Below, one piece after another: positions 3,560 through 49,267 of a stretch of DNA of 64,000 bases. Numbering within the stretch: position 1 is the first letter of the stretch; the number at the start of each line of letters is the position of its first letter. Below the pieces are notes generated by a model. That model did no database searches. It was not told the DNA's origin and was given only the letters and a program-made list of their open reading frames with translations. Location of the stretch: NCBI GenBank assembly GCA_047639625.1, contig JBLIOG010000001.1:169-64168 (forward strand), in the 5' to 3' direction. Made by a program: the position numbers and the translations under genes. The stretch is from Gammaproteobacteria bacterium (lineage in GTDB: Bacteria; Pseudomonadota; Gammaproteobacteria; GCA-001735895).

Positions 3560-3560
3560 A

Positions 3561-6516: not shown

Positions 6517-6518
6517 CC

Positions 6519-14784: not shown

Positions 14785-14787
14785 TAT

Positions 14788-22653: not shown

Positions 22654-24502
22654 TCAGAGTGCTATCGCTATTCGGTAGGCATCCAGTATTGCTGCATGCA
22701 GTGATCGGCTACTGACATCATGACCGATTCGATACAACCTGAATGTGCTGGACTCATCCGTTTCATGAGGTTGAGCACTGGCTGACAGCAAGGCGTCGAT
22801 ATCGGTCACGCCACTATTAATAGATCGATTGCGTAGCTCGGTAAATACTTCATCAATCGGCGCTGTGCCCTGCTCAACTACGACCTGATCCGTTTCAATT
22901 TCAATTAATTCATTGGTTAAATCATTTCTAAAAGTTGCTAGCAAATGATTAGGTTGCGATTGAACGGATGGTAGTTTCATGTCCAGCTTAAAGTCTACTT
23001 AAGACGGTGCAGTTCTTTAAGGTGCACCGGACGCTCGGCATAGCCTAATTCGGCAGTGGATACTGCTTCTTGGCGTCCCGTTCCGTCATACACTAATACG
23101 CTATTTGCTGGCTTTACATCGCCACTGAGCAAATCCCAGATGATCAAGTTCACTGATTCTTCGGTTCACGACGCTAATAAGATCTCTTCGCCATCCAGCG
23201 CGGGTGGCGGTTAACAACTGACCACCGAGTTTCGGGGTTGCTTCAAGTAAAATCACCTCGTGGCCGCGTTCCGCTGAAACTCGCGCCGCCTCTAGCCCAG
23301 CCCAGCCGGGCCGCCGCCGAAAACGACAACTCGCTTTTTTATCCCGATGATAGGTTCAATAACTGGCGGTAACTCAAGTTCACGCCCTGATGTTGCGTTA
23401 TGAATACAATGAATTTTTTATGCATACAATGGAACGCACCAAAACAGGGACGGATTCGATCTTCCTCGCCACGTAAAATTTTATTGACTATATGCGGATC
23501 AGCAATGTGGGTACGTGTCGTAGCAACCATGTCCAAAACTCCATCTCGAATAGCGTGCCTGGCAGTAGGCCCATCAGTAATACGCGCTGCATGGGAAACT
23601 GGCAAAGATACTGAAGACTTCATTTCTTTTATCAAGGGTAAAAACGGTGCCAGCGGTTGCGTCATACTGGGCATATTATTTTCCGCAAGAGCCAACTCAG
23701 TATCCATTCGACCTGCTACACAATTAAGGAAACTAATTGCGCCTTCTCGTTCGAGCAATTGGGCAATCCTAATAGCATCTTCGGCCGATAATCCACCTCG
23801 ATCTTCCTGAATCGACATCCTGATGCCGAGTAAAAAATTATCCCCGACCTGTTTTCGAATCTCTTCATGAACCATGAGCGCAAAGCGGGCCCGATTTTCA
23901 ACACTACCGCCATACTTATCGGTTCTTTGATTTAACTCGGGTGAAAAAAACTGCCCAATAAGATGACCACCCCCGTGAGTTTCCAGTCCATCGAGTCCAC
24001 CTTCCAGGCATCATCTGGCCGCTTGCCCAAAAGCCTTTACAATCCGTTTGATATCAAATTCATCAATTTGTCGCGGGATACTTCGATGCAGAGTTTCGCG
24101 GATCGTCCCGGGTGATATGGTTGGTAACCAGTAATCGGCGGTTGCATCACCTCGGCGTCCAAGATGAGTAATCTGACACATCAAGGCAGTGCCGTGACTA
24201 TGTATACGTTCTGAAAATTTTTGGAGATGGGGGATAATTCGATCATGATCGATTCTTAGCTGGTTAAACACCGATGGCGAATCGGACGCTACATTCGAAG
24301 AACCACCAAACATTGTTAAAGCCAGCCCTCCTTTCACTTTTTCTTCATGGTAAGCCTGATATCGTTCACCCGGCATTCCACCGTCGTCCATACCACAGGC
24401 ATGCCTGGTACTCATAATTCGATTTTTTAACGTTAAATGACCAATCGTTAAAGGCTGAAACAGAGGGTCATTGGGTCGAATGGGTGTTGACTGTTCGCTC
24501 AT
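22654..24502 (-). pseudogene. Disrupted 2,4-dienoyl-CoA reductase (FadH)/NADH:flavin oxidoreductase-family gene
   Basis: N-terminal OYE fragment (24502-24011) and middle fragment (23875-23339) ending at a degenerate Fe-S motif RPCFGAFHC. The FAD-binding segment VVVFGGGPAGLG* carries an in-frame stop (~23300). The C-terminal piece (22980-22654) ends ...ILDAYRIAIAL, like FadH. At least three frame disruptions. Confidence 0.65.
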
Positions 24503-24582: not shown

Positions 24583-24942
24583 TCAGTCATTATCGAGCGG
24601 AGCAAGGATACCTGATCGCGTGCGTTCAGAGGCCGTATCTATTTCAAATAATTTATCTCGGAAAAAGCTAGAACGAGATTTGAAATGGAATACAGAAGCA
24701 CCGATGATAGGAACACAGTGGAGAAATCCACACCATAGTAATTGTCTTTTTAAGGAGATTAGCGCGCTAAAAGTCGTTGTCACCGGAATCAGCAACAGGT
24801 GGACAGGAACAGCAACGACCAGGAAACCAAATAACGCGTTATCCATTATCTCCTCCATTGACTCCGACCAAATAGTCAAACTTAGGCATATCACCCGAAG
24901 GTACACTTCAGAATGTGAATAACTATACCCTGATACTGCCAT
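24583..24942 (-). CDS. Hypothetical small membrane protein (uncertain)
   Basis: 119-aa ORF with two hydrophobic segments, overlapping the PhzF 3' end by 20 bp. An opposite-strand ORF competes for the same DNA. No homology recognised. Confidence 0.25.
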   Translation of the reverse strand: MAVSGYSYSHSEVYLRVICLSLTIWSESMEEIMDNALFGFLVVAVPVHLLLIPVTTTFSALISLKRQLLWCGFLHCVPIIGASVFHFKSRSSFFRDKLFEIDTASERTRSGILAPLDND

Positions 24943-25816
24943 CCATTACCATTTTACAGGATCCGCCTATCCATGACCCGATGATGCTACCGGACTGTTT
25001 TTGAACGCGAGCTTCTAGCAAACTGGGACGATTCATTTTCACACCCTGGGCGATTCGCCAGGCAAAATGTCCCTCTGACTCCGAGCAATAATGACTTAAC
25101 ATAGAAACCAGTGCACAGTTTGCACTACCGGTTGCAGGGTCTTCCGGTACACCATCCAGAGGCGCAAAAACTCGACATCGGATATCGAACTCATCCTGAG
25201 ATCGTATGTAGACCAGAATGTCTGAGGTAATCCCTTGACCATGAACTTCTTCCAGCACCTGCGTGTTTACGGAGACTTTTTCGAGGGTAGTCCAATCTTT
25301 AAGTTCAACCATAATAAAGGGCAATCCGACTGAAGCAACCTGGGGCTGATGAGTGGCAGTCAAGATGTCATCGCTAGTCACCGATAGTGCTGAAGCAGCT
25401 TGATCCAAAGCTATTATCTCGCGAATAGATAAGGGCTCAGGGGCTTTTAGCTCACACCAGATACCTGTCCCGTCCCATCGGATTAAAATCGGTACCGGTC
25501 CGGCTAACTCGTCAAAGATGATCTCTTTTTCTTCACCAATGTCGCCTAGTTCGCCAATACTCGCAAGCGTAAATGCCGTGCCAATATTGGGATGACCCGC
25601 AAAAGGAACCTCCTGGGTCGGAGTGAATATTCGAACCTTTCTAGTATGTCTGTGATCCCCGGGCAATACGAATGTCGTCTCCGAATAATTAAATTCCCGC
25701 GCAATAGTTTGCATCTGTTCACTGGAAATTCCGTTTGCATTGGGAATAACAGCAAGAGGATTCCCACCAAATCGCTCATGCGTGAAAACATCGCAGGTAT
25801 AAAATTTATATTTCAT
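24923..25816 (-). CDS. PhzF-family isomerase-like protein
   Basis: N-terminus MKYKFYTCDVFTHERFGGNPLAVIP is typical of the PhzF family. 297 aa. Confidence 0.85.
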   Translation of the reverse strand: MKYKFYTCDVFTHERFGGNPLAVIPNANGISSEQMQTIAREFNYSETTFVLPGDHRHTRKVRIFTPTQEVPFAGHPNIGTAFTLASIGELGDIGEEKEIIFDELAGPVPILIRWDGTGIWCELKAPEPLSIREIIALDQAASALSVTSDDILTATHQPQVASVGLPFIMVELKDWTTLEKVSVNTQVLEEVHGQGITSDILVYIRSQDEFDIRCRVFAPLDGVPEDPATGSANCALVSMLSHYCSESEGHFAWRIAQGVKMNRPSLLEARVQKQSGSIIGSWIGGSCKMVMDGSIRV

Positions 25817-25860
25817 TGAGTCTCAGCTACTGTAAAACTACCATTGAGGGTTGGAAATCG

Positions 25861-27156
25861 TTATCTCAATTTATCAAGCAACTGATAATACCGAACAGCT
25901 GCACCAAGGAACCAGGGCTTACCCGAGTAGAGCGGTCGGGTTTGAAAACCAATCTGATCAAAGGCCGTTTTACCTTCCGGCTTTCCGAGCAATTGCTGGC
26001 CGATACGATTACCCATGAAACTGGCAAGACATATCCCCGAACCACAATAACCCATCGCATAATGTATACCGTCCTGGACACCGAGATGCGGTAAATTATC
26101 GAAGGTATATCCGACAAAACCCATCCAGCTGTGGCTAATCTTCACATCTTCCAGTTGTGGGAATATGCGCAATAATTCCGCCCGTAAAGCGGGTAGGCTT
26201 TTTTCGGGATCCGATTCAAAGACAGAAACGCGTCCACCAAACACAACACGATTCCCATCGGGAGAGCGACGAAAATAAACAACCACTTTACGCGTGTCGC
26301 TAAATACTCTGTCCTTTGGCATTAATGCTTGAGCACGCTCGGCAGGTAAGGCTTCGGTGGCCAGCATATAACTTCCAATTGGAACAATCCGGCGCTGTTG
26401 CCAAGGACTGACATTACCGGTATAGCCACTCGTGGCAATCACCAAATCTCTGCAATTAATCTTTCCTTTTGTAGTTGTAACCGTGAATCCATCGCTGCGT
26501 TTATCAATTTGATCGGCGCGGCAATGGCTCACAATTTCAACACCCACATCGATAGATTTTTGCAAAAGCCCCTGATGATATCTCGCTGGATCAAGCGAGC
26601 AATGCTGATCGATAACTAAACCACCATGATAAAACGGGCTGTCAATTTCGGTGCCTTGTTCAGCTTTGCTCACCAATCTTAAAGGCTGCTCGAGACCTTT
26701 TGGTTGATTCTCAATCGAATGTGCTAGTTGTTTGAACTGACGCGGACTATGGGCCGCTACAAATCGGCCGCATTGACGTAAGTCACAATCAATAGACTCT
26801 TCTTCAATAAATGTTTTAAGCCAGCTCAATGCATTTCTTGCTTCACCAATCAGGCTTTTTGCAGTATCGATACCATGCTTTCTAGAAAGCGCCTCATAAC
26901 CGGGTTTAATCTCACCACTAATCTGACCCCCATTTCTGGCACTGCAACCCCAACCGGCCGATTCGGCATCTATGACAAGGGTTTGACATCCAGCTCTGGC
27001 CGTTTGTAATGCGCAATTTAAGCCGGTATATCCCGACCCTATAATCAGTACATCAACGTATTCCGGTAAGGCCGCTACTGATTCGGCGGGTCTTGGCGTA
27101 CCATCCCACCAAAAGGGTGTATTTTTAAAATCCCGACTTTGAAATGAATAAGTCAT
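25861..27156 (-). CDS. FAD-dependent oxidoreductase (DAO family; DadA/PuuB-like)
   Basis: VLIIGSGYTGLNCA dinucleotide-binding motif. 431 aa. Sits 5 bp downstream of the sulfatase gene. Confidence 0.8.
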   Translation of the reverse strand: MTYSFQSRDFKNTPFWWDGTPRPAESVAALPEYVDVLIIGSGYTGLNCALQTARAGCQTLVIDAESAGWGCSARNGGQISGEIKPGYEALSRKHGIDTAKSLIGEARNALSWLKTFIEEESIDCDLRQCGRFVAAHSPRQFKQLAHSIENQPKGLEQPLRLVSKAEQGTEIDSPFYHGGLVIDQHCSLDPARYHQGLLQKSIDVGVEIVSHCRADQIDKRSDGFTVTTTKGKINCRDLVIATSGYTGNVSPWQQRRIVPIGSYMLATEALPAERAQALMPKDRVFSDTRKVVVYFRRSPDGNRVVFGGRVSVFESDPEKSLPALRAELLRIFPQLEDVKISHSWMGFVGYTFDNLPHLGVQDGIHYAMGYCGSGICLASFMGNRIGQQLLGKPEGKTAFDQIGFQTRPLYSGKPWFLGAAVRYYQLLDKLR

Positions 27157-27161
27157 ATAAA

Positions 27162-28697
27162 TTATACTCGAAGGGGTTCAATTCTCTGCAGCGGCGACTC
27201 GCGTCTAAACGGGCCACCCTCGCCTAACATGATGTCACTCATACCGCGATCCTGATAATTCATTTTCCACGACAACATCTTTTGACTGTAATGTAGAACT
27301 TCTGTCTGATAAGCCGGATCATTTGCCAAATTAATGAATTCGCCGGGGTCATTCTGCAAATCGAAAAACAAAGGTGGTAAGGCCGAAAAGTGAATGTATT
27401 TATAACGGTGATCACGAATTACAGACAGGCCACATTGATGCAGGGTCAAGCCCAGATGTTTTTCAATAGTGTCATCACGAACATCACGAAAATCACATTC
27501 CCAATGCACTTCTTCACGCCAACCATCGGGTACTTTATCGTGGTAAATCATGGGTAAAAGCGAAAAGCCGTCGCATTGTGACGGCACCGGTAACCCCAGC
27601 CAGTTCAACATAGTTGGCATAATATCTACGTTTTCGGTAAAGGCATCAAACTGTTTACCACGGCTACCATCTGCTTCAGCTCGCGGGTCTCTGATGATCA
27701 ACGGAATAAAATATGACTGATCAAAATAACCCTGTTTAAATCGTAACCAATGATCGCCTAATTGTTCACCATGGTCAGAGGTGAAAATAATCATCGTGTC
27801 GTCCCATAGACCTTCCGATTTGAGTATATCGAATAGTCGACCAAGGTTGTCATCTACCTCACTCATCAAACCAAAATAATTAGCTTTGTCCTGCTTGATT
27901 TGACGGCTTGAACCCGCCCTGTATTTACTATGATTTAAAAAATAATCAAGCAATGGATGTTGTTGAGATTCGATATCCGGATTTTCACTACGCATCGGTT
28001 CATCCAGATCGTCCGTATGATACATTTCGTTATAGGGCTCCGGCGCTGCAAAGGGCGGGTGCGGGCGCAACAATGACAAATGGGTGATCCAGGGTTCACG
28101 CCGTCCCTTTATCCAGTCAATGCATCGATTCACCATATAATGCGTTTCGTGATCTTCACTGCTCATGGCGAGAGGCAAAACGGACTCCCCCCCATCGGCG
28201 TAGTCGATTCCTTCACGGGTAATCGCGTACAAATCCCATAATGACTCCGGCATCGGGTGATTTCGCGATACCAGATAATTAGTCCAATCGACAGGGACTT
28301 CACCCTGAATCGGGGTGTAGTAACCCATTCCCGACAAAGGCTCACTATAATGGGTCAGGCGCGGGTCCTGTGGATCGAGCCCTCTTGGATCAGCTGCGGT
28401 GTCGGTATAACCGAACAACGAAGGATGATAACCAAGTCGATTAGCTTCCAACGCCCAGTTAGTAAACCGACTATCGAGCGGCGTACCATTCACGACACAT
28501 CGATGGTTTTGAAGGTACATACCCGTGTGCAAAGAAGTACGACTTGGCGCGCAGGGTGTGGCCTGAGCATAGTGATTTTTAAACAACACACCTTCTTTTG
28601 CAAGCGCATCAAGATTGGGAGTTTTTACCTGTGGATGATCACGGCTGGATAAACATTCTCCGCGCCATTGATCTGCTGTGATAAATAGAATATTCAT
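27162..28697 (-). CDS. Formylglycine-dependent sulfatase (alkaline phosphatase superfamily)
   Basis: N-terminal ILFITADQWRGEC and the C-X-P-S-R sulfatase signature (TPCAPSRTSLHTG). 511 aa, no signal peptide, so apparently cytoplasmic. Confidence 0.85.
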   Translation of the reverse strand: MNILFITADQWRGECLSSRDHPQVKTPNLDALAKEGVLFKNHYAQATPCAPSRTSLHTGMYLQNHRCVVNGTPLDSRFTNWALEANRLGYHPSLFGYTDTAADPRGLDPQDPRLTHYSEPLSGMGYYTPIQGEVPVDWTNYLVSRNHPMPESLWDLYAITREGIDYADGGESVLPLAMSSEDHETHYMVNRCIDWIKGRREPWITHLSLLRPHPPFAAPEPYNEMYHTDDLDEPMRSENPDIESQQHPLLDYFLNHSKYRAGSSRQIKQDKANYFGLMSEVDDNLGRLFDILKSEGLWDDTMIIFTSDHGEQLGDHWLRFKQGYFDQSYFIPLIIRDPRAEADGSRGKQFDAFTENVDIMPTMLNWLGLPVPSQCDGFSLLPMIYHDKVPDGWREEVHWECDFRDVRDDTIEKHLGLTLHQCGLSVIRDHRYKYIHFSALPPLFFDLQNDPGEFINLANDPAYQTEVLHYSQKMLSWKMNYQDRGMSDIMLGEGGPFRRESPLQRIEPLRV

Positions 28698-28733
28698 CTC
28701 TGACCCTTTTAATTGAGTAGTAGTTGAAAATCT

Positions 28734-30065
28734 TTAACCCATTAACAATGAGTCAAACGGACAATTAACCATATTTTCGTAACCATCTTCGGTTACCAGT
28801 ATCTGATCTTCGAGTTTAATACCATCCGGCCCACCCACTTCACCGATGTAGGCCTCGACACAGAGCATCATTCCGGGCTCTAATATTCCTTCATATCCAC
28901 GTTCTTCCCAGTCTATCGGATATTTAATCGCGGGCCATTCATCACAGAGTCCAACGCCATGAAACTTTGAGCCGTATCGCTGCGGAAGATATTGTTCGGT
29001 AAGGTGATGCCCGCCTTCGGTGACATCCTGAAAAGAAAGACCCGGTTTGATCATATCGGCGTTTGTCATAATATGGTCATAGGCAAATCGATGCATGTCT
29101 TTCTGGCGCTGGGTTGGTTTGCCATCTCCGATAAACCAGGTTCGTGAAATATCAGTACACATGCCGTAGCAACCAATAAGGTCGGTATCAAACGCCACAA
29201 TCTCATTATTAGCAATGACTCGCGGGCCACATTCCTGGAACCAGGGATTGGTGCGTTGTCCTGAGGACAGAATTCGTGTTTCAATCCATTCACCACCGCG
29301 CCGAATATTGGACTTATGTAATTCAGCCCAGACATCGTTTTCAGTCATTCCTGGTTGAGTCAGTTCACGCATTTCGGCAATCGAAGACTCACAGGCATGG
29401 ATTGCACAACGCATCGCCAGAATTTCGTCGGGTCCTTTTATCGCGCGCGTGCGTTCCATGAGCTCTTCTCCATCCATGACCTTTACTCCTGCTTCATCCA
29501 GCGCACGTAGGCCTGCTATTTGAATTTTATCAACGGCGACACGACGTCCCGACCCTACTCTTTGCTGGAGGACCTCAAGAACCTGACCGACAAATTTCTC
29601 AGCCTTTTCTTCAGTTCTCTGCGCCGTTGCAAAATAGAAAAATGAGGCACCCGATCTGACTTCACGAACCAGTGGATTGAAATTGGACATATAGGCATAA
29701 CCACCATATTCCCACAACACCAAATAACCATCAGCCGTCACCATACAGGCGCGGAAGGGATTATGTGCATTCCATAACTGCATGTGAGTTGAATCAGTCG
29801 CGTATCGAATCGACAATGGATCAAATAGCAATACTGCATCCAGCTCTCGTTCCTTTAACCCCGCAACGATTCGATCCAGACGATACTGGCGCATTACGGG
29901 TAGATCAGGGCACTGTAAACCAGCCGCTTCCCACTCGGCATAAGCCATTGGTGACGGTCCGATTTCTACTCGATCATTATCTTCCGGTGTATTATCCGGG
30001 CGCATGCCTGGACGACGAGCCGGGTTAACTTTGGGCTTTGGTATGGAATGGGGATTATCTGACAT
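28734..30065 (-). CDS. dddP: M24 (creatinase/prolidase-fold) family protein resembling DMSP lyase DddP
   Basis: 443 aa. Long stretches (NDRVEIGP, FDPLSIRYATDSTHMQLWNAHNPFRA, KGPDEILAMRCAIHACE, RRGGEWIETRILSSGQRTNPWFQECGPRV, KLEDQILVTEDGYEN) match my recollection of the DddP sequence. Not verifiable here. Confidence 0.55.
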   Translation of the reverse strand: MSDNPHSIPKPKVNPARRPGMRPDNTPEDNDRVEIGPSPMAYAEWEAAGLQCPDLPVMRQYRLDRIVAGLKERELDAVLLFDPLSIRYATDSTHMQLWNAHNPFRACMVTADGYLVLWEYGGYAYMSNFNPLVREVRSGASFFYFATAQRTEEKAEKFVGQVLEVLQQRVGSGRRVAVDKIQIAGLRALDEAGVKVMDGEELMERTRAIKGPDEILAMRCAIHACESSIAEMRELTQPGMTENDVWAELHKSNIRRGGEWIETRILSSGQRTNPWFQECGPRVIANNEIVAFDTDLIGCYGMCTDISRTWFIGDGKPTQRQKDMHRFAYDHIMTNADMIKPGLSFQDVTEGGHHLTEQYLPQRYGSKFHGVGLCDEWPAIKYPIDWEERGYEGILEPGMMLCVEAYIGEVGGPDGIKLEDQILVTEDGYENMVNCPFDSLLMG

Positions 30066-30069
30066 CGCG

Positions 30070-32490
30070 TTACCCTCTCAGTCTTGAGCCTGTCGAATCA
30101 AAGGGTGGTTTTTCAAGAATGACTGCTGCATGAGGTTGCCCTAGCACAGCAACTTCCAGTTCAGTACCGGCAATCGCATGTTCGGTTTTAACAAAACAGA
30201 GCGCTAGCGATGCCAAAACCGAATGACTATAGGCACCGGAGCTTACACGACCAACGGGTGTTCCGTCGGTCAGAAAAATCGGCTCGCTGCCGTTAGCATC
30301 GGCATTATCCGTTTCTATCTGAACCATGACCAGTTTTTCTCGGGGCGGCTTATCTTTGATCGCAAGATAGGCATCTTTCCCGAGGAACTCAGGCTTATCA
30401 AGTTTGATCAATCGATCAAGTCCTACTTCCTGTGGCCAGTATTCGGGGGAATATTCCCGACTCCAACTGCCATAACCTTTTTCAACTCGTAGTGATAATA
30501 ATGCTCGTCCACCGATGGGTTTAACCCCATACGTTTGACCCGCATCGAGCAAGGCCTTATAAAGCGCCAACTGATGCTCAACTGGAACATAAACCTCGAA
30601 CCCGAGGTCTCCGCTAAATGAGACTCTAAGCGCAATAGCGTCCAGACCTGTAATGCGAATTTTACGATTGCGCATAAAAGGAACTGCATCCCCCGATAAA
30701 TCTTCGTCGCAAACTTTCTCCAGTAAATGTCTCGAGTTAGGGCCAGCTATATTAAAACCCGCCCAGCTTTCGGTCAGACTTTCAAAATTCACGGTATCGC
30801 TCTTATCGACCATATCGAAATAACGTTTGTGATAACGTTCGGCAATCCCGGAACCAATCATCATAAATTCTTCTTCGTCCAGTTTGGTAATCGTGAAGTC
30901 ACCGGCAATACCACCGCGCAATCCGATTAAGGGCGTAAGACAACTCCGTCCAGTTTCGGTCGGTACGTAGTTAGCAACCAGGCGATTTAAATAATCGGCT
31001 GATCCGACACCTGAAATCCGATACTTGGCAAAGTTCGAGACATCGATAATGCCGACTGACTCTCGCAATGCACGACACTCTGCGGCGACCGGTTCAAACC
31101 AGTTTTGACGTTCGAATCCATAAGTCTCTATCGGTTCCATACCTTCAGGGGCATACCAGAGAGGATGTTCGTATCCGTAACTTAATCCAAACACTGCACC
31201 CATTTTTTTCTGTAAGTCATAAACCGGCCGTTTATTAATCGGACGACCCGCTTGACGTTCTTCGTAGGGAAAATGTATTTTAAATCGATGCGAATATTGG
31301 TCGAGCGTACGCGCTTTTGTGAAAGCTTTGTTCGCCCAGGTACCGAAGCGAGCCAGATCCCAGGGGAACAGGTCCATTTTCGACTCACCTTCGACAATCC
31401 ATTCCGCCATGGTAACGCCGAGTCCACCCGACTGTGAGAATCCAGGAATGATCCCACAACAGCAAAAGTAATTTTTAAGTTCAGGTACCGGACCAATCAA
31501 AGCAGAGCTATCCGGCGCCCAAATCATTGGGCCATTAATCACGCGCTTGACGCCAGCTTCGGCAAGAACTGGAACACGCTTAAATGCCCGTAACATATTT
31601 TCTTCAATTCTTTCCAGATCTTCGTCCAGTAATTCATGGCCAAAATCTTGTGGTGTTCCATTTTCAGACCAATATCGACCATCTTTTTCATAAGCACCGA
31701 CTAACAAACCCTGACCTTCCTGGCGCATATAATATTCGCCATCACGATCTGCGATTAAAGGTAACCGTTGCTCAAGCGCTGCAATTTCCGGAATGGTTTC
31801 GGTTACAAAATACTGATGCTCGAGCGGCATCAACGGTAAATCAAAGCCCGCCATTGCGGCAACTTCTCGCGCCCATAAACCGGCAGCATTGACGACCACC
31901 CCGGCATGAATGGTAGCTTTGTCAGTTTCAACATCCCAGCTTCCATCATGTCGCTGCGTCGTCGCGATAACCGGCGTAAAACGATGAACCTCAGCACCCC
32001 GTTGACGGGCTCCCTTAGCGTAGGCATAAGTCACCCCAGAAGGATCAACATTACCACCATCGGGTTCGTACATGATGCAACGGATGTCATCAAAATTCGC
32101 CAGCGGATGCATACGTTCGGCTTCATCGCGATTCAATTCATGAAAATCGACCTGGAAATATCGAGCTTTGGCTGCCTGCATTCGAAGTTGGTATTCACGA
32201 TCTCTAGTTTGAGCAAGATAGAGCGAGCCCGGTTGAAATATTCCACAGCTTTGTCCCGTTTCGCGCTCCAGTTCTTCATAAAGTTGCATCGTATAATATT
32301 GCAATTTCGAAATATTATTATGGTCGTGCAGACCGTGTATTCCAGCCGCTGCATGCCAGGTTGAACCCGACGTTAACTCATCACGTTCGAGTAGAACAAC
32401 ATCGGTCCAACCGATTTTTGTCAAATGGTAAAGAATAGAACAACCAATCAGACCACCCCCAATAACAACAACTTGTGCTTCAGTTTTCAT
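30070..32490 (-). CDS. Dimethylglycine/sarcosine dehydrogenase-family protein (FAD oxidoreductase + GcvT-like folate domain)
   Basis: 806 aa with N-terminal VVVIGGGLIGCS FAD motif and a C-terminal aminomethyltransferase fold. 4 bp from the upstream gene. Confidence 0.85.
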   Translation of the reverse strand: MKTEAQVVVIGGGLIGCSILYHLTKIGWTDVVLLERDELTSGSTWHAAAGIHGLHDHNNISKLQYYTMQLYEELERETGQSCGIFQPGSLYLAQTRDREYQLRMQAAKARYFQVDFHELNRDEAERMHPLANFDDIRCIMYEPDGGNVDPSGVTYAYAKGARQRGAEVHRFTPVIATTQRHDGSWDVETDKATIHAGVVVNAAGLWAREVAAMAGFDLPLMPLEHQYFVTETIPEIAALEQRLPLIADRDGEYYMRQEGQGLLVGAYEKDGRYWSENGTPQDFGHELLDEDLERIEENMLRAFKRVPVLAEAGVKRVINGPMIWAPDSSALIGPVPELKNYFCCCGIIPGFSQSGGLGVTMAEWIVEGESKMDLFPWDLARFGTWANKAFTKARTLDQYSHRFKIHFPYEERQAGRPINKRPVYDLQKKMGAVFGLSYGYEHPLWYAPEGMEPIETYGFERQNWFEPVAAECRALRESVGIIDVSNFAKYRISGVGSADYLNRLVANYVPTETGRSCLTPLIGLRGGIAGDFTITKLDEEEFMMIGSGIAERYHKRYFDMVDKSDTVNFESLTESWAGFNIAGPNSRHLLEKVCDEDLSGDAVPFMRNRKIRITGLDAIALRVSFSGDLGFEVYVPVEHQLALYKALLDAGQTYGVKPIGGRALLSLRVEKGYGSWSREYSPEYWPQEVGLDRLIKLDKPEFLGKDAYLAIKDKPPREKLVMVQIETDNADANGSEPIFLTDGTPVGRVSSGAYSHSVLASLALCFVKTEHAIAGTELEVAVLGQPHAAVILEKPPFDSTGSRLRG

Positions 32491-32493
32491 AAT

Positions 32494-33714
32494 TTACTCT
32501 TTCAAGAGGTTATTGACGATTTGCGGGGCGACCACCAGAGGATAAGACTGGAACCCATGGATACCCCCTCTAAAACTTTTTTCACCAGCCGCTTTTCCTA
32601 CAGGCAAAATATTAAAACCCAGGCCATATCCGTACAAACCCGGAATACGCTCAGCACTCTCTAAAGTGAATAGCTCACCGTTGGCTGAAGGTTTACCGAG
32701 GTTTACATTTTTGCCGTCAATCTGGAGGATAGGAACATCCGGTTTAAAACCTGTCGCTTGCAAAATAAGCGCGGATTGCCCCAGTAAGCCCTGTTGATCC
32801 GAACAATGATTTATATTAACAAGTTTGACCCTTTTTTCCAGACCATCACGAATGTTCAGATACAGCCACTTGGCATCTTTACGCAATCCGGCATGTGAAT
32901 AAACCAGTCCGGTCGATGCCGCTAGATCGGCTTCAGGATCATAATTAATCTGATGCTGTTTCGCAAACTCAGGTGTGCAGCGAACCTTGATGGCGTCATG
33001 GCGCTGGAGGATGAAAATTTCACGCTGACCCAAATTGTCCGAAAACAATGGATCATTCAAGAGTCGCCAGGCACAGGAAAAAGCACTGTGGGAAGCTCCG
33101 ACAATAACCACAGGACCTTGCCCCGACGGCAGGGCGGTCAGGTTTTTACGGAGTAGAAATTGTAAGGAACCTTCCACCTTCTCGGCGTAATCCGATAATT
33201 CGGGTAGGACATCATCGCGACCACCACAACACAAAACAACCTGATCACTTCGAGATATTACATTTCCCTCCAGATCAATAGATTCAAATTTTTCTTTATC
33301 AATGCGCAACTGCTTAACAGGTCGATTTAATAGTAGACGAGTACCAAGAAGATCGCGGACTATCCTGATTAATGGCTGCACCATTAATTGATCAATTTCG
33401 GATAATGGAATCAGGTCTTTGCTGGTTTGCGGCAGCTTTAAATATAGTTCACGTAGTTCGGCAAATACGGTGCCTTCTAACATACCCTGGACAACATCTT
33501 TCGAACTGGTATTGGCATTGATTTGATACTTGCCCATTAAACCACCGGGCTTGTCGGTGGCTTCAATCATGACGAGCTTATCGAACAGGGATCTTGCCTT
33601 TAGTGTTCCCGTCTGCGAACGATCGCTTTGCGCTATATGATTACATAGCGCAATAATCAGACTCATTCCTGCAGGCCCGGCGCCAATAATCTGCAACGGG
33701 ACGGTATCAGTCAT
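32494..33714 (-). CDS. FAD/NAD(P)-binding oxidoreductase (two dinucleotide-binding motifs; possibly an N-hydroxylating monooxygenase-like fold)
   Basis: IIGAGPAGMS at the N-terminus and a second VVIVGASHSAFSCAW motif. 406 aa. 3 bp from DMGDH-like gene. Confidence 0.55.
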   Translation of the reverse strand: MTDTVPLQIIGAGPAGMSLIIALCNHIAQSDRSQTGTLKARSLFDKLVMIEATDKPGGLMGKYQINANTSSKDVVQGMLEGTVFAELRELYLKLPQTSKDLIPLSEIDQLMVQPLIRIVRDLLGTRLLLNRPVKQLRIDKEKFESIDLEGNVISRSDQVVLCCGGRDDVLPELSDYAEKVEGSLQFLLRKNLTALPSGQGPVVIVGASHSAFSCAWRLLNDPLFSDNLGQREIFILQRHDAIKVRCTPEFAKQHQINYDPEADLAASTGLVYSHAGLRKDAKWLYLNIRDGLEKRVKLVNINHCSDQQGLLGQSALILQATGFKPDVPILQIDGKNVNLGKPSANGELFTLESAERIPGLYGYGLGFNILPVGKAAGEKSFRGGIHGFQSYPLVVAPQIVNNLLKE

Positions 33715-33728
33715 GTCAAAGACTGCAA

Positions 33729-34991
33729 TCAGGCAGCGAGGTGTATCTTGATGATTTCATCGAGTTCATTGAGAAATCTAAGGACTTCTTCACGGCTATT
33801 GTAATGACACATAGAAACCCGGATGCAGGTTGGACGACCCAGTGGATCAAGAATATTACCCGAAAAATAATCAGCTTTACGAACATGAGTGCGGATACCT
33901 TTAGCATTCAAATCTGCAACCACTTCAGCACATGGTTTGCCTTCGACAATGATCGATACCATACCTTCACGCGCAGGATTATCGAGCCCACCAATCACAA
34001 AAACCTCAGACATATTTCTTAAGCCACGCTGTTCGCCATCACCATTGATCATGATATCGATAAGACCGTGTTCCTGCGCAGTAATCGCTTCACCGGCCGC
34101 TAGAATTCGAGTTCGACGGTCGGTAGATTCGGTGAATTTTGAACCGAGCCAGTCAAAATATTCGATAACAGCCGTAGTACAGGCAAAAGCCGAAGTATCA
34201 CGAGTTCCCATTTCCCAGAAATCAGACGGTGTGCCATCCAGATGATCATGCGGTAAATGCGCAAGTCGGGGAGAAACCCAGGCAAATCCATAATTGTGTC
34301 GAGAAAAAACTTTGTATGCAGAAACAGCGTAACCATCAATATCATAATCATCGACGGCGAGTCCGCCATGCGCTGCATGCTGAATGCCGTCAAGAATAAT
34401 AATGCAATCCGGCGAAGCCGTCCGAATGGTCTTAACCACAGCTTCAACGTTAACCGACATTCCAGTAACAGGGCTGGTATGGATAATAGTAGCTACGCGT
34501 GTATCTGCATCGACCACTTTGGCATAATCATCGGCGGTTACGGTTGCCGTGTCGTTATCATGAAGAACTGCGCGGTATTCTTTACCAGCGACCGTTGACC
34601 AACGCTTTCCTGCTGTGACAGTGGCCGGATGTTCAAGTGTGCTACCTACGACATTGCCACCCTCGGGTGAGCCCATTACTGCAGCCCGAACCAGTCTAAA
34701 CAATAATTCAGTACCACTTTCGCCGGTGAATACCGGGCCCTCTTTAACCCCAAGAAAAATTCGCATATTGTCGCGGGCTTCGCTAATAATTCGAACCAGC
34801 TCATGCGAAGCCGGGTTATCTCTACCCTGATTATCAGGAATGCCTGCCAGCGTTGTATTAACCTCTACGACCGACTTCAGAGTCAGTCCGCCACCCGCAT
34901 TTTCAAAGAATATTCTCGGACCCTGAAATGGGCAAATATCGACATGGCAAAATCGATCTCTAATTTGTTGCATTAATACTGCTTCAAACAT
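33729..34991 (-). CDS. Class-V PLP-dependent aminotransferase/desulfurase-fold enzyme
   Basis: 420 aa. Fold-type I class V features. First gene of the long minus-strand operon, divergent from LysR. Confidence 0.7.
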   Translation of the reverse strand: MFEAVLMQQIRDRFCHVDICPFQGPRIFFENAGGGLTLKSVVEVNTTLAGIPDNQGRDNPASHELVRIISEARDNMRIFLGVKEGPVFTGESGTELLFRLVRAAVMGSPEGGNVVGSTLEHPATVTAGKRWSTVAGKEYRAVLHDNDTATVTADDYAKVVDADTRVATIIHTSPVTGMSVNVEAVVKTIRTASPDCIIILDGIQHAAHGGLAVDDYDIDGYAVSAYKVFSRHNYGFAWVSPRLAHLPHDHLDGTPSDFWEMGTRDTSAFACTTAVIEYFDWLGSKFTESTDRRTRILAAGEAITAQEHGLIDIMINGDGEQRGLRNMSEVFVIGGLDNPAREGMVSIIVEGKPCAEVVADLNAKGIRTHVRKADYFSGNILDPLGRPTCIRVSMCHYNSREEVLRFLNELDEIIKIHLAA

Positions 34992-35083
34992 CTGTTTCCC
35001 TCTGCAGGCTGGTACGAATTTCTTAGGTTAAGGTGAGTTAATTAAAAGATGCTAGCACCCGACCTACTAAAAAGATAACATTT

Positions 35084-35108
35084 ATTACTTTACTAATTCG
35101 AAAGTAAT
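35084..35108. promoter_or_regulatory. Candidate LysR-type (T-N11-A) operator palindrome in divergent promoter region
   Basis: ATTACTTTACTAATTCGAAAGTAAT is a perfect 8-bp inverted repeat ATTACTTT/AAAGTAAT, lying between the class-V aminotransferase operon and the LysR gene. Confidence 0.35.
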
Positions 35109-35122
35109 TCTTTCTAATATTT

Positions 35123-35986
35123 ATGAATATCCGATACTTCGAGAGCCTGCTCCACATTGTAGAACTGGGTTCGATCGCCAAAGCTGCAAGAGTTCAGAAT
35201 TTAACACCAGCTGCGGTTGGTCAGCGTATTATTGCGCTTGAAAAACACTTTAATACGCCCTTGCTCAACCGCAGTCAGCACAAGGCGGTTGCAACACGGG
35301 CCTGTGTTGATTTATTGCCTAGGATTCGAGGGCTGGTCAAAGGATTTCACGATCTTAGCGATCAGATCGATCCCTCAGGACTGGAAGGGAAATTTCACAT
35401 CGGTGCCATCTCAACGGCATTAACAGGATTACTACCCAGTGCTGTCCATCAATTGGCCGAACAGGCACCGCGCCTCAATTTACAAATACGCCCTGGGACT
35501 TCTAATTCTCTGTTTAACGACCTTCAGGAGGGCAGCATCGATGCTGCGATAATAGCCGCCCCGCCCTATGAAGTTCCACGCCGATTTCAGGTGAATATCC
35601 TACGAAGCGAGCCCCTGGTATTACTTTCACATCACCAAACTCAACACTCGATTCGGGACCAATTACAGCAGGACCGATACATTTGTTACGACTCTCAATC
35701 CTGGGGTGGACTCAAAGCCAACCAATATTTGAAAGACAATAATATTGACATCGAACCTTACTACGAACTTGATGCATTGGAAGCCATCGAAAAATTGGTG
35801 AAACAAAATATGGGCGTTTCACTAGTGCCACTTTGGTCAGGTCTAGACACCTTAGATACTGATCTGAAGACGACCGAGATCAATAATTCGCTCTATCACC
35901 GAAATATCATACTGGTAACACCTGCCACATCAAAAAGACCGAGAATCGTATCTGCATTACTTGCATCATTGACTATCATTGATTGA
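35123..35986 (+). CDS. LysR-family transcriptional regulator
   Basis: HTH motif LHIVELGSIAKAARVQNLTPAAVGQRIIALEKHF. Divergent from the 24923-34991 operon. Confidence 0.85.
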   Translation: MNIRYFESLLHIVELGSIAKAARVQNLTPAAVGQRIIALEKHFNTPLLNRSQHKAVATRACVDLLPRIRGLVKGFHDLSDQIDPSGLEGKFHIGAISTALTGLLPSAVHQLAEQAPRLNLQIRPGTSNSLFNDLQEGSIDAAIIAAPPYEVPRRFQVNILRSEPLVLLSHHQTQHSIRDQLQQDRYICYDSQSWGGLKANQYLKDNNIDIEPYYELDALEAIEKLVKQNMGVSLVPLWSGLDTLDTDLKTTEINNSLYHRNIILVTPATSKRPRIVSALLASLTIID

Positions 35987-39883: not shown

Positions 39884-40860
39884 TTAATTCCTGGTAGCTC
39901 GATTCACCAAAATTGAATTTGCCATACCAAAGGGATTCATCATGCTATCTGCAATTAATTTAGAAAATTTTGAACCTAAAACGGGTAAAAGAACTAATGA
40001 CAGGAGAATTAAGATAAGCTCCTTCCATTCGCTATCAATATAAATAGTTAGTCCTGCCGCTATTAAACCTTTCATTACAAAGCCATGCATAACATATATG
40101 TACAAAGAGTCCATGCCATAAGTTGCTCCAATATTATGCCTCTCTCTTACCATCGATAGAAGTAATTTTCCAGGTAAAAAGGCTAAGCAATCTACTCATT
40201 CTGCTTTTCTGGATTTTTTTATTATTTGTTCGTGATTAAAGTGTCCCATAAGAAAGAATGGAAATAAAACAAAGGTTCTTGAAAAAGACAGTTGGTAATC
40301 ATAATGATTTACACCACATGCAAGACCCGCAATTATTGAAAGTACAACTGGATATTTAAATTGGAATAAAACGACAATAAAATTCGCCATAATATCAGAC
40401 TAAAAAAATTCCAAAGTATCCAGTACGGAAACAGTGAAGATATACTGAGAAAATCTCCAGAAAAAATAACATAGTCGAATCGCGAATAAATTATTTCCAG
40501 GCATATACATGGAATGACTAATTTGAGGATAATACTTCTAATGACAGAGTCATCTAATTTATTAGAAGATAGGATGCCTGAAACGTACGCAAACATTAGC
40601 ATGTGAAATAGGTATATAAACATATAGAGCGGCTTAACCCTGCCAAACCTATTCATTAAAGGTTCGATAGCATGACCGACTATTACTATCGCTATAAGAA
40701 AACATTTAAAATTATCTACCGCTATATCTCGTATAGAAATTCTTCCTTGTTAACGTATTCGATAGATAAAAAATGATGAACTTGCGGACGTTTCCAAGAT
40801 GACTGAACTTTTGTACGCCCAACATAATCATGCACTGATAATGTATAAATCTCCTGTAGC
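39884..40860 (-). pseudogene. Fragments of an acyltransferase family 3-like membrane protein gene in a low-GC island
   Basis: Consecutive short minus-strand ORFs encode hydrophobic segments (SLYIYVMHGFV..., FIVVLFQFKYPVVLSIIAGL...) split by frameshifts. Markedly AT-rich. Confidence 0.4.
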
Positions 40861-41487
40861 AGTATTACTGTCTGGAGCCATGAAATGATTAGACGTTAAA
40901 TGCTAATGAATAAAAAGAGGCTACGTGTGGAGTATGTTCAAAAAACAAAATTTATTGCACCTCCAATACCTGAATACAAGGGAGGATGTCGGATCCCGAG
41001 GGGTTTTCGAAGCATCAGTATCGGCGACTAAATATCGAGGTATTAATCCACTCCGCTCAAAACTCACTGGATTTTTATTACTGTATTTGCCCGACCAATA
41101 CTCCCGACCTTGTCATCCCATGATAATCACGGTTGAATATACTGAACAATCGAGCGCCTATTGGAATAAAACCATAGTTAATCGACGTCACCGACTAAAA
41201 GACTAAATCCCGAATATCGCTGAGATTGCTCTTCAAGAAATTTTAAGCAGGCTTCCGGTTCAATCGTCGATGTCAAAATCTGGCGCAGAGAATCTCCCTG
41301 TTTATTAACACCAGGCCAGGTTCCAGCCGATTACAAATCACGGCCGGCACGCACATCGGGCGGGTCCTCCCACCATCCGGCATTTTGAGTCAGCGCGCGT
41401 AAAACTCATCACCATTGGCAATGAGTAACAACAGATAATCCGGATGTTGTTTATAGGCGAAAAGAATTCGGCACATTCAAAAGAAAG

Positions 41488-42768
41488 CTAACGACTTATC
41501 GCATCCTGATCAATTGCAGGTAATGGCTTATCTTCAATTGCTGCCTCAAAAGAAGACAACCGTTTATAAACAGATATGAGTTCAATAATCGTTGGCCAGG
41601 AGTTGATCAAAAATTGAAAAGAACTGCTTACCTGTCCAAATGCTGCAGAAATTTGCTGATAAACTCCGAAAGTTAATGCCCCAACAGCTAGCGTTGGTAC
41701 CAATAGAATTAATACGAAAATATTATCCGCCTGTAGATACATATATCGGGCTACATTAAAATACATGTAATGAAAATATAGTTTGAAATAGTTTTTACGG
41801 ACGTTTTCGAACAGATCTTTTAATTTTGCTGGTTGGGCTCTTGTTTCATCGTCTTCGCCGTATACCAATTCCTTTCTATAGGCGGCTTCGACTAACTGAT
41901 TATTGAATTCCAGCCCAGGTAATTTAATACCTACGGTAGCCAGTAAAATTGTTCCAAATAGAGACCAGGCAATAACCGCAAAAAATAGTGGATATGCAAT
42001 TTCTCCGACTATCGGGAGTTCTTTTACGTAATCTGATAGTACCAACAATACTGGAAGGAAGGCAAAAAGCGTCATGATTGAATCGATAATAGAGACTCCT
42101 AAATTCTCCATAATCTTGGCAAAGATCATAGTGTCTTCCTGCACACGCTGCGATGCACCTTCAATTTTCCTAAGCCTTTGCCATCGCTCGGTATAGTACT
42201 TATTCATGGCAGTGCGCCAGCGAAAAATATAATGACTAACAAAAAATCGAGTAAGTACAATCACAAAAATTGCAATCATTGCTAGCTCAAGAAATACTAA
42301 AGACAAATCAAGAATATCCGCTCCGATTTTGGCAACGTCTTCTGGAGCACGCACTTCTGCGACAACTTCACTACCACCATCCCCTACTTTTTTAAATGCC
42401 GCCTGGACTTTATTAAAAAATGGACCTCGCCAGTTATTGATAGCTACCGATACCTGTACCGAATAGTAGGTCGTAAATATGATGAATGCCGATCCGGTTA
42501 TTGACCACCATCGCCACGGGTGGTGTGATAATTTAAACCAGAATATTGAAAATAATGCGGTACAGAAAAAGTAGTAGCCATAGAAAAGTAAAAATGAATC
42601 GGTAAAAAAATGTCCTGATCCGATAACGGGTTCAGATTCGGCCAGTTCCAGACCAAGCCAGCCTCCAATGACCTCACTATACCCAAACCAGATAAAGCAG
42701 CTAAGACCCGCATAGACAATAAGCGATAAAAAGAAAACCTTTGGATTGGGAAAAAACGACTTGAACAT
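41488..42768 (-). CDS. sbmA: SbmA/BacA-family peptide (microcin/antimicrobial peptide) importer
   Basis: N-terminus MFKSFFPNPKVFFLSLIVYAGL mirrors E. coli SbmA MFKSFFPKPGTFFLSAF. Conserved HYVFRWRTAMN, EGASQRVQEDTM, GIKLPGLEFNNQ and YRKELVYGEDD blocks. 426 aa. Confidence 0.85.
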   Translation of the reverse strand: MFKSFFPNPKVFFLSLIVYAGLSCFIWFGYSEVIGGWLGLELAESEPVIGSGHFFTDSFLLFYGYYFFCTALFSIFWFKLSHHPWRWWSITGSAFIIFTTYYSVQVSVAINNWRGPFFNKVQAAFKKVGDGGSEVVAEVRAPEDVAKIGADILDLSLVFLELAMIAIFVIVLTRFFVSHYIFRWRTAMNKYYTERWQRLRKIEGASQRVQEDTMIFAKIMENLGVSIIDSIMTLFAFLPVLLVLSDYVKELPIVGEIAYPLFFAVIAWSLFGTILLATVGIKLPGLEFNNQLVEAAYRKELVYGEDDETRAQPAKLKDLFENVRKNYFKLYFHYMYFNVARYMYLQADNIFVLILLVPTLAVGALTFGVYQQISAAFGQVSSSFQFLINSWPTIIELISVYKRLSSFEAAIEDKPLPAIDQDAISR

Positions 42769-43462
42769 TGCTGATTTTATTCCTGTTTATCTGGATTCGT
42801 ACGGTAACTGTGATTGATAGACGTATTAGCCACCAATAGATTCACTTTTGGGCTGAATTAGTATTGTCACAGAAAGGTTCGACGAGTTCCACCATGAGTT
42901 TCAGGTGACTTTCCCGAATATTCAAGGCGTGAAAATGGGAAATTTTTCTCCACTCACTTCAACCAACACTTCACAATATTCCATTTCAATTTCATCGAGT
43001 GTTTCCAGACAGTCTGTTGAAAAACCCGGGTAGATGGCATTGCTGCTTTTGATTCCTCGTTAATCAAGATTTGGCCAGACCTGTGCACCAAAGTGCGATT
43101 CAAACCCCATTGCCCAGTCGTCTTGCCTGGCCTGGTTTCTCAGCGAGCACAGTCCAGGGTCAGGCTAGATTTTGACCATCCTCTTGCTAAGCTTTATGAC
43201 AATGGTTTCTCTCTTCGACAGAATGCCTGGTGGCTGTAACCCCTGTTTGAGTACAGGCAGCTTTTCAAACAGGTAAGGTTTCATTGAGTTCGGTCTTTAT
43301 TCGGGGTGCCATCAGGCTCTAGCGTTCCCGTATTATTACTATCGCTAGAATTTGTTCACTGACGCTACTCAATATTCTTTTGCCATTTACAATATTAGGA
43401 TATACTAATATTATCGACCCAATTATCTTATCGTCACTGACCAGACGATTTCATATCTTAAT

Positions 43463-45788: not shown

Positions 45789-45992
45789 AGCATCATCACC
45801 ATTGAGATAATTTACTTCACCCAATTACTTTTATCATTTTATTTAATCGTTGCTTTAGACCATTGTATGCCATGCAGATAATTAATCTGTACCGGCAGCC
45901 GGCAGACTTTCGCAAAAACTCTCAATGAGGAGTTTTGAGTATCTGTTTAGTTAATCCGGTTATATTTAAAATTTCAATTCCAGGCTTTAGGT

Positions 45993-49257: not shown

Positions 49258-49267
49258 ATTATTGACC

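Follow-up and report, generated by a model that had tools for sequence, protein, structure and literature searches.

A 64,000-nucleotide stretch of a gammaproteobacterial contig (JBLIOG010000001.1; the whole stretch is referred to as the window) carries seven co-directional genes on the minus strand (24923-34991 in its list of open reading frames), divergent from a gene for a LysR-type transcriptional regulator. Within this operon, the gene for an enzyme of the dimethylglycine dehydrogenase (DMGDH) family is directly followed by that for DddP, a family with documented activity in converting dimethylsulfoniopropionate (DMSP) to dimethyl sulfide (DMS) and acrylate. We tentatively propose, and favour without calling it probable, that this operon, activated by LysR, serves the catabolism of methylated onium (betaine or sulfonium) osmolytes, and that its evolutionary core would be a DMGDH-type demethylase translationally coupled to DddP. 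Each family is known and a LysR-regulated osmolyte operon is a known kind of locus; we found no literature report of these genes in combination, of how strictly they are conserved together, of the coupling of DddP to DMGDH or of the orphan flavoprotein. An earlier reading from sequence only knew of no characterised pathway that combines these enzymes, and the literature on the gene combination, dddP neighbourhoods, natural substrates of phosphonate monoester hydrolases (PMHs) and beta-alanine betaine catabolism indeed gave no description of the cluster.

The operon and its regulatory gene, with families as predicted from profile and structure-database matches, are as follows.

33729-34991, minus strand: class-V-fold pyridoxal 5'-phosphate (PLP) enzyme, here AT5; first gene of the operon
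32494-33714, minus strand: unk406, 406 aa; orphan flavoprotein, accessory member
30070-32490, minus strand: DMGDH-family enzyme, 806 aa; FAD domain and tetrahydrofolate (THF)-binding GcvT domain
28734-30065, minus strand: DddP (M24 fold, di-iron DMSP-lyase family; NF043017)
27162-28697, minus strand: PMH-clade formylglycine hydrolase; alkaline phosphatase superfamily, Sulfatase domain
25861-27156, minus strand: DAO-family FAD amine oxidoreductase; DAO domain, frequent member
24923-25816, minus strand: PhzF-family isomerase (TIGR00654); operon's end
35123-35986, plus strand: LysR-type transcriptional regulator; HTH_1 and LysR_substrate domains, divergent from the operon

From the PLP gene to PhzF the gaps are, in order, 14, 3, 4, 36, 5 and 44 bp, and a 131-bp spacer (34992-35122) separates the LysR and PLP genes. 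The seven minus-strand genes and the divergent LysR gene of the sequence-only reading match the open reading frame coordinates exactly, and its gap sizes of 3-44 bp hold, but the tightly spaced set comprises six genes and not five. Pfam and NCBIfam profiles back each family that it had named, most of its labels being right, although those of the M24 enzyme, the sulfatase, the aminotransferase and one FAD oxidoreductase needed a sharper identity.

Conservation of the block in relatives

A scan for DddP with one genome per species gave 80 loci, onto which all window proteins were mapped; the denominators used here are the loci with enough flank to judge, and the main set consists of 33 species-level genomes with a DddP that has 80% or more identity to that of the window. 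In this set AT5 was present in 19/19 relatives, the DMGDH-family gene in 25/26 and the PMH-clade hydrolase gene in 27/27, with DAO in 12/17, unk406 in 10/19, LysR in 4/19 and PhzF in 0/17. The conserved core is AT5-DMGDH-DddP-PMH, and DAO is frequent. About 30 species-level genomes, with GC contents of 46-66%, share the gene order, the carriers being widespread, uncultured Gammaproteobacteria of coastal and marine sediments, and the DMGDH gene ends a few bases before the DddP start in at least 30 loci. When DddP is 65-79% identical only DMGDH persists (7/20, in Arenicellales and Rhodospirillales), and below 65% no partner persists as an orthologue, the single DMGDH-family match, at locus L061, being a paralogue.

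Chance juxtaposition, which the sequence-only reading had named as one way in which its operon could fail, does not explain the block, because the core is near-complete wherever the flank suffices, over this GC range and between differing flanks. In many relatives MsrA and an Fe-alcohol dehydrogenase flank the block at one end and HhH-GPD, HalD-like and MatE genes at the opposite end, and the clusters of L021 and L086 adjoin lptD-surA-pdxA, whereas in the window the operon region has guanylate cyclase and bactofilin genes on one side and genes for a methyl-accepting chemotaxis protein and a YbaK-like protein on the other. It is extremely unlikely, in our view, that the genes have no common function and are neighbours by a shared chromosomal backbone or chance. 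PilZ and response-regulator genes do split the block in many relatives, and MsrA, the flavin-containing monooxygenase (FMO)-like unk406 gene, PMH and BipA occur together in genomes without DddP; but the six-gene set is intact in its different flank in the window with gaps of 3-36 bp, the core is kept throughout the GC range, the DMGDH-DddP junction is held to a few bases, and independent DMGDH paralogues join DddP elsewhere.

Some further genes recur in relatives with none in the window. One, upstream, encodes a 434-aa Fe-alcohol dehydrogenase (12/15) that among the models matches choline dehydrogenase GbsB best, though weakly; another, immediately behind the hydrolase gene (13/24), encodes a TauD-family dioxygenase that weakly matches the BBOX, TMLD and TmpA models. 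MsrA lies upstream of the cluster in 8/13 relatives and PhyH-type dioxygenases follow the DAO gene in 11. In L086 a compact form, LysR / AT5-unk406-DMGDH-DddP, has the hydrolase gene 4 kb away.

DddP and its coupled N-demethylase

Over residues 9-442 (positions 6-443 of the 443 in the profile) the M24 protein scored 655.5 bits against the DddP equivalog model NF043017, whose cut-off is 600, and it matched Ruegeria lacuscaerulensis DddP (4RZY) with 571 bits, being about 60% identical to, and as long as, Roseobacter-group DddPs. Aligned to 4RZY, with the residue numbering of R. lacuscaerulensis fixed by the D377N mutant entry 4S01, it keeps the metal ligands D295, D297, D307, H371, E406 and E421 as well as the catalytic set D377, Y366, W95 and Y117, the functional roles of which were reportedly worked out by Wang and colleagues in 2015. 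Its assignment to the DddP family, of the di-iron beta-eliminase type, is well supported, and the 'DddP-like M24 enzyme' of the sequence-only reading, correct as to M24, can be named more sharply as a bona fide DddP by cut-off and residues. With the DddPs of Roseovarius nubinhibens and R. lacuscaerulensis (4B28, 4RZY) it has family cut-off, length, metal and catalytic residues in common. The Roseobacter dddP genes, however, have uninformative neighbours (murein transglycosylase, glnA and a nitrogen regulatory protein; 10.1101/168930), whereas that of the window is translationally coupled to a DMGDH-family gene in a conserved multi-enzyme operon.

The partner of DddP has all four Pfam domains DAO, FAO_M, GCV_T and GCV_T_C over cut-off in one chain of ~800 aa, and its residues 2-797 match rat DMGDH with 621 bits. 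No NCBIfam equivalog model for DMGDH scored on it. It keeps the covalent-FAD histidine (GSTWHAA, aligned with the mammalian motif) and the His/Tyr dyad equivalent to His225/Tyr259 of DMGO, whose roles in the DMGDH/DMGO family have been described (PMC5082570). That it acts as a THF-dependent oxidative N-demethylase is well supported by these domains and residues.

An M24 enzyme beside a demethylase has a parallel. Creatine catabolism has pairs of creatinase (M24) with sarcosine oxidase or dehydrogenase, the creatinase being metal-independent. Like such pairs, the operon joins an M24 fold with a Creatinase_N domain to an enzyme of the DMGDH/sarcosine-dehydrogenase family, and by analogy a complete two-enzyme route would result were an N-methyl amino acid the product of the M24 enzyme; unlike creatinase, this enzyme scores above the DddP cut-off and retains every metal and catalytic residue of DddP.

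The link between DddP and N-demethylases extends beyond the main set. Arenicellales and Rhodospirillales also have the DMGDH-DddP pair, with a different LysR gene divergent from it in Rhodospirillales, and non-orthologous DMGDH paralogues (33-44% identical to that of the window) lie beside DddP in L040 (Hyphomicrobiales), L042 and L061 (Neomegalonema), with a gene of the MttB family also near DddP in L042. In L061, from a Neomegalonema metagenome-assembled genome (2250-18346, plus strand), the order is DMGDH-MttB-DAO-DddP-HAD-DAO-MttB-(551-aa protein with no Pfam match)-DMGDH, and the paralogues flanking DddP are as far from the window's DMGDH (40-44%) as the mammalian enzyme is. Because non-pyrrolysine MttB proteins are quaternary-amine methyltransferases and stand here beside DMGDH and DAO, L061 has the look of a DddP enclosed by two complete cascades for betaine N-demethylation. 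This locus is the strongest evidence suggesting that DddP of the wider clade works in methylated onium catabolism. Moreover, since the DMGDH genes of L040, L042 and L061 are paralogues and not orthologues, the DddP/demethylase link has, by these sequence comparisons, arisen independently in several alphaproteobacterial lineages.

The formylglycine hydrolase and the DAO-family oxidoreductase

The gene after dddP encodes a protein with a PF00884 Sulfatase domain (157 bits) and the formylglycine motif C-A-P-S-R (CxPxR) at residues 49-53, within TPCAPSRTSLHTG (residues 47-59), and its identity as a formylglycine esterase is well supported. No formylglycine-generating enzyme was seen among the annotated open reading frames of the window. 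PMHs, dimeric arylsulfatases and choline sulfatases form three clades with shifted substrate preference (PMC5870055), and among PDB entries the hydrolase scored highest with PMHs (4UPH, 465 bits; RlPMH, 440; BcPMH, 427), against ~250 bits with the dimeric arylsulfatases SpAS1/2 and ~125 bits with choline sulfatases. By these scores it is a member of the PMH clade and not a PehA orthologue, lying below the PehA equivalog cut-off (NF045661, 560.6 versus 900 bits). Choline sulfatase BetC (TIGR03417) was considered and rejected in favour of the PMH clade, the score being 184 against a cut-off of 433 bits. What had been called a formylglycine sulfatase thus retains the formylglycine motif but belongs with the phosphonate monoester hydrolases, and a sulfated substrate is not specifically indicated by the scores with PMHs (465-427 bits), choline sulfatases and BetC. 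Its likeness to RlPMH and BcPMH (2VQR, 2W8S, 4UPH) extends over the full length and includes the CxPxR motif; unlike those two enzymes, which are known only as promiscuous catalysts, the PMH of the window type is a fixed member of a conserved operon.

The DAO-family protein had as best NCBIfam matches pipecolate oxidase AmaA (142 bits) and the aminophosphonate oxidoreductase TIGR03329 (135 bits), both far under cut-off, and no PDB match at 1e-8. That it is an FAD amine oxidoreductase, at an AmaA/PbfD-like distance, is well supported by its sequence. In the relatives that have it the gene lies within 6.5 kb, and it is directly behind the hydrolase gene in the window and in L025.

Together these enzymes recall the route from choline-O-sulfate through betaine (betC-betBA, DMGDH, sarcosine oxidase), which likewise has a formylglycine hydrolase and DMGDH- and DAO-family enzymes; the GbsB-like Fe-alcohol dehydrogenase of relatives and the sarcosine oxidase subunits of the window add to the likeness. 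The operon differs in that its hydrolase is of the PMH clade and not BetC, in having no betaine aldehyde dehydrogenase or betaine demethylase, and in adding DddP and a UstD-like PLP enzyme.

The hydrolase and DAO matches also bear on whether the operon degrades N-methylated aminophosphonates in ester linkage, for example marine phosphonolipid head groups. In such a scheme the PMH would free the phosphonate, DMGDH would demethylate it, the DAO-family enzyme would deaminate it, and an FrbJ-like dioxygenase and the Fe-alcohol dehydrogenase would modify the carbon chain. The hydrolase is nearest to phosphonate monoester hydrolases, and FrbJ, which we take to be a phosphonate-tailoring hydroxylase, is with 106 bits one of only two PDB matches of the relatives' TauD-like protein, the other being 7N7V ('predicted hydroxylase', 79 bits). 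The second-best models of the DAO and LysR proteins (TIGR03329 and phn_lysR), a weak match of the Fe-alcohol dehydrogenase to PsrA, the PhyH-type dioxygenases after DAO, and a pair of genes at 6519-7612 resembling phosphonopyruvate or sulfopyruvate decarboxylase point the same way. Even so, no phosphonate-family match reaches its cut-off, the block and the annotated window open reading frames contain no PhnX, PhnA, PhnZ, PalA or C-P lyase, the DMGDH is most like enzymes with carboxylate substrates, and DddP, the best-conserved member, would go unexplained. We regard an aminophosphonate pathway as distinctly unlikely.

AT5, a putative aldolase-like PLP enzyme

AT5 has an Aminotran_5 domain, and TIGR01976 matched it with 152 bits, against a cut-off of 352. 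Its best PDB matches were UstD (65 bits) and FGM3 (54 bits), with which it has in common the S-x-Y-K motif at the PLP lysine (SAYK in AT5) and a C-terminal VRVSxxHYN motif. At the position of the GHHCA motif of SufS-type desulfurases AT5 has RKADYF. A role as a cysteine desulfurase (SufS/IscS/NifS) was discarded, there being no catalytic cysteine, SAYK instead of S-x-H-K, and desulfurase models far under cut-off, as was one as an aminotransferase, with no PhnW- or AGXT-type matches. Given SAYK and these PDB matches, the 'class-V aminotransferase' of the sequence-only reading is probably neither an aminotransferase nor a desulfurase; AT5 resembles the aldolase-type PLP enzymes UstD and Fgm3 (54-65 bits), in a UstD/Fgm3/VC1184-like type. 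Fgm3 cleaves gamma-hydroxy-arginine in a retro-aldol reaction, and UstD carries out decarboxylative aldol chemistry (PMC10055224). Both also lack the desulfurase cysteine, as does AT5, but they are fungal whereas AT5 is bacterial and in a catabolic context, and the scores between them stay at 54-65 bits. In the relatives AT5 orthologues are 74-85% identical to it, and among the matches listed its orthologues were at least 78% identical.

These features of AT5, with those of DddP, lend some interest to the idea that the substrate is a nitrogen analogue of DMSP. DddP would then natively carry out C-N beta-elimination on beta-alanine betaine or 3-(di)methylaminopropionate, a doubtful proposal; the compound might be supplied as such, and equally doubtful is a variant in which the pathway makes it from a longer trimethylammonium amino acid, trimethyllysine for instance, that is gamma-hydroxylated by the TauD-like protein and cleaved between C-beta and C-gamma by a retro-aldol reaction of the PLP enzyme. 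DMGDH and DAO might subsequently demethylate and deaminate the tertiary and secondary amines, a step for which we hold as little confidence. At least five lineages pair DddP with N-demethylases and two pair it with MttB, and of the DMSP lyases it has the lowest activity and selectivity, its native function being unsettled (Tawfik-lab preprints 10.1101/168930, 10.1101/161257), while it tolerates bulkier leaving groups (10.1101/168930). The nearest solved relatives of AT5, with their common SxYK, act by aldol or retro-aldol reactions on gamma-hydroxy amino acids, the TauD-like protein matches BBOX, TMLD and TmpA models, beta-alanine betaine is produced in marine communities (PMC9321204), the block is without acrylate-pathway or DMS-pathway genes, and protonated 3-dimethylaminopropionate is isosteric with DMSP. 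This must be set against the retention by DddP of all its DMSP-cleavage residues with no sequence sign of altered specificity, the modest 54-65 bits that tie AT5 to UstD/Fgm3, the lack of the TauD-like gene in the window and in 11/24 relatives, the absence of a role for the PMH, a universal core member, and the lack of biochemical precedent for DddP on ammonium compounds. That DddP here might be not primarily a DMSP lyase but a C-N or general onium beta-eliminase of a new betaine pathway with PMH, the PLP enzyme, DMGDH and unk406, degrading beta-alanine betaine, N-methyl-beta-alanines or a longer precursor of these, is accordingly, to our mind, rather unlikely.

After the cluster in L021 (16394-21326) there are genes for a CN-hydrolase, an amidohydrolase, an M20 peptidase and a dihydropyrimidine-dehydrogenase-like protein, a set of the reductive pyrimidine catabolism type. 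That route ends in beta-alanine and so bears on the beta-alanine betaine idea, but its position may be a coincidence.

The orphan flavoprotein and PhzF

The family of unk406 has 146 matches in 5.8 billion proteins, none of them named. With a two-dinucleotide-binding-domain fold and FAD and NADPH motifs, unk406 is an orphan flavoprotein that belongs to the class-B monooxygenase (FMO or N-hydroxylating) fold. A YUCCA-like 'aminotransferase plus FMO' core for oxidative decarboxylation was entertained and dropped, as roughly half of the clusters have no FMO-like gene and this gene is also found where DddP is absent. The latter is seen in L084-L089 (e.g. L084, 6051-11215), where a family member with 44% identity occurs in the order PNPOx / PMH-type hydrolase (66% identical to that of the window) / AhpC / Usp / MsrA / unk406 / ACPS / BipA. 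Methionine-sulfoxide reductases recur more widely: MsrA lies upstream of the cluster in many gammaproteobacterial relatives, and MsrB (SelR) adjoins the L061 cluster.

Sulfatase, TauD-family and LysR genes make up a classic ats/tau/ssu-type locus, and a similar make-up here could denote a LysR-controlled regulon, of the sulfate-starvation type, for scavenging organosulfur or for sulfur stress. Its parts would be the sulfatase, the TauD-type dioxygenase, a desulfurase-like PLP enzyme, the DMSP lyase, an S-oxygenating flavoprotein and the nearby methionine sulfoxide reductases, MsrA being found upstream of the cluster as well as beside the FMO-like and PMH genes of L084-L089, and MsrB beside L061. 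Marine sediments, however, are sulfate-replete, AT5 is without the desulfurase cysteine, the hydrolase is of the PMH and not the arylsulfatase type, DMGDH and DAO have no sulfur role, and the best 25 models of the LysR protein include no CysB/Cbl-type match. We consider such a regulon very unlikely.

PhzF, at 215 bits against a cut-off of 76 for TIGR00654, was found only in three near-identical contigs carrying the window's own proteins. The sequence-only reading had counted it in the operon; it is co-directional after its 44-bp gap but, being absent from all 17 informative relatives, not part of a conserved unit, and we rejected it as a conserved pathway member. PhzF is a lineage-specific addition to the operon's end.

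LysR and the shared regulatory region

The LysR protein has the two Pfam domains of its family and reaches no NCBIfam equivalog cut-off. Orthologues with 58-63% identity occupy the same divergent position in L004, L007, L010, L021, L025, L083 and L086. An alignment of the LysR/PLP-gene intergenic regions of 8 loci revealed three boxes that are invariant or nearly so, located in the window as follows.

35084-35108: palindrome ATTACTTT-N9-AAAGTAAT with 8-nt arms, 100% complementary, including T-N11-A
35068-35079, read on the minus strand: GTTATC..TTTA box
35049-35057, minus strand: extended -10-like element TGCTAGCAT, TGCTAG(CAT) in the alignment

The perfect T-N11-A palindrome that had been reported between LysR and the operon is thus the 8+8 dyad at 35084-35108; common to the 8 loci is a TAAAG...TTTA dyad, which in the window is extended to the 8+8 palindrome. 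TGCTAGCAT looks like the extended -10 of the PLP-gene promoter, a putative assignment, since a generic sigma-70 scan did not flag a promoter before this gene. The conservation of these boxes in 8 loci supports control by LysR of a conserved promoter before AT5. The description of the operon as LysR-controlled accordingly fits the conserved regulatory region where LysR is present, but LysR adjoins the block in only 4/19 relatives.

Proposed pathway and its weighing

In the methylated-onium reading that we favour, LysR would bind T-N11-A-type boxes and, with a small-molecule inducer, fire the promoter before the PLP gene. The PMH-type hydrolase could free an onium alcohol or acid from its sulfate, phosphate or phosphonate ester, DddP could carry out a metal-dependent beta-elimination on a 3-onium-propionate, and the DMGDH-type enzyme would move N-methyl groups oxidatively onto THF to give methylene-THF. 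The DAO-type oxidoreductase and the UstD/Fgm3-like PLP enzyme might dispose of the leftover amine or amino-acid skeleton, with the FMO-like flavoprotein and PhzF, and in relatives the FrbJ/BBOX-like dioxygenase and GbsB-like Fe-alcohol dehydrogenase, as optional extras. We infer throughout the substrates, the order of the steps and whether one compound or several are processed.

The sulfated, N- or S-methylated osmolyte originally suggested as substrate survives as to the osmolyte and methylated theme, given DddP with DMGDH and, in other lineages, MttB, while sulfation is not specifically supported. The osmolyte context noted for the window was likewise borne out: SoxA/SoxG, a DoeB-like gene, ectoine-type ABC genes and an ugp/GDPD operon fit, and a DgcA-like flavoprotein is also in line with it. 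The GbsB-, BBOX-, TMLD- and TmpA-type matches of relatives, all to quaternary-amine enzymes, argue weakly for the same conclusion.

Several observations weigh on the other side. The conserved block has no transporter, no acrylate or 3-hydroxypropionate gene and no aldehyde dehydrogenase, so that the pathway as drawn is incomplete; nor does the window have a betaine-to-dimethylglycine demethylase (MttB, GbcAB or BHMT). No definite step in the scheme falls to the PLP enzyme or to the FMO-like protein, and most relatives have no LysR gene next to the block. The hydrolase, DAO, TauD-like and LysR proteins all fall under every equivalog cut-off, several of their best weak matches being phosphonate enzymes.

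DMSP clusters of LysR-regulated type are known for dddD, with dddD-dddTBCR/dddAC in Marinomonas and Halomonas and DddR as the LysR regulator. The operon resembles them in LysR regulation and in having a DMSP-cleaving enzyme, and the Fe-alcohol dehydrogenase of relatives is comparable to dddB. In contrast to them it is without a BCCT transporter, a CoA-transferase-lyase and a malonate-semialdehyde dehydrogenase, and has in their place an N-demethylase, a formylglycine esterase, an amine oxidase and an aldolase-like PLP enzyme.

Among the 'DMSP lyase' genes of marine metagenomes dddP is one of the most abundant and is routinely taken as a proxy for DMS-production potential, while enzymologists have argued for a different native function, with the action of DddP on DMSP as a side reaction. 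The operon provides DddP with a first functional context, a testable partner set of an N-demethylase and four or five further enzymes, and offers a handle on the natural substrates of PMH enzymes, known for promiscuity; a bacterial UstD/Fgm3-like PLP enzyme and an orphan flavoprotein family also gain genomic context. If the main substrate of DddP here were not DMSP, sediment dddP counts would overstate DMS potential, and if it were a C-N or onium beta-eliminase, the cluster would show what DddP natively does and on which class of substrates PMHs naturally act.

Other genes of the window

The GC content of the cluster equals that of its flanks, and recent horizontal acquisition is unsupported. 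Directly downstream of PhzF (23339-24502, minus strand) there is a frame for an FMN oxidoreductase of the old yellow enzyme (OYE)/DgcA type, cut off after a Cys-rich region and interrupted by a single in-frame TGA (24011-24013, …FGQAAR*CLEGGLDG…). Because the interruption is identical in three independent contigs, the frame is probably a decaying N-demethylase-like pseudogene and not a sequencing error. It resembles the N-terminal domain of a 689-aa OYE and Pyr_redox flavoprotein (16637-18706) of the TMADH/DgcA/FadH type, a candidate N-methyl demethylase, which is preceded at 13447-15993 by genes for an amidase and an AllG-like protein.

SoxA/SoxG (620-4061) and a DoeB-like deacetylase (4034-5056) adjoin a group at 5374-7612 with a HisC-like aminotransferase and then a split thiamine-diphosphate decarboxylase (6519-7612), whose parts resemble the subunits of sulfopyruvate and phosphonopyruvate decarboxylases; the group may form a module for cysteate/sulfonate or for phosphonoalanine. 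On the other side of the operon, 12 kb away, an ugpB-AE-C-like ABC transporter and a GDPD (UgpQ-like) glycerophosphodiesterase (47156-52629) could be a source of glycerophosphocholine and other glycerophospho-diesters of onium alcohols. The region 40001-46628 has a GC content of 0.38-0.42, compared with ~0.46, and includes genes for an SbmA/BacA-like transporter (41488-42768), a second DAO-family protein (44367-45788) and a truncated PhyH-type dioxygenase (46092-46628).

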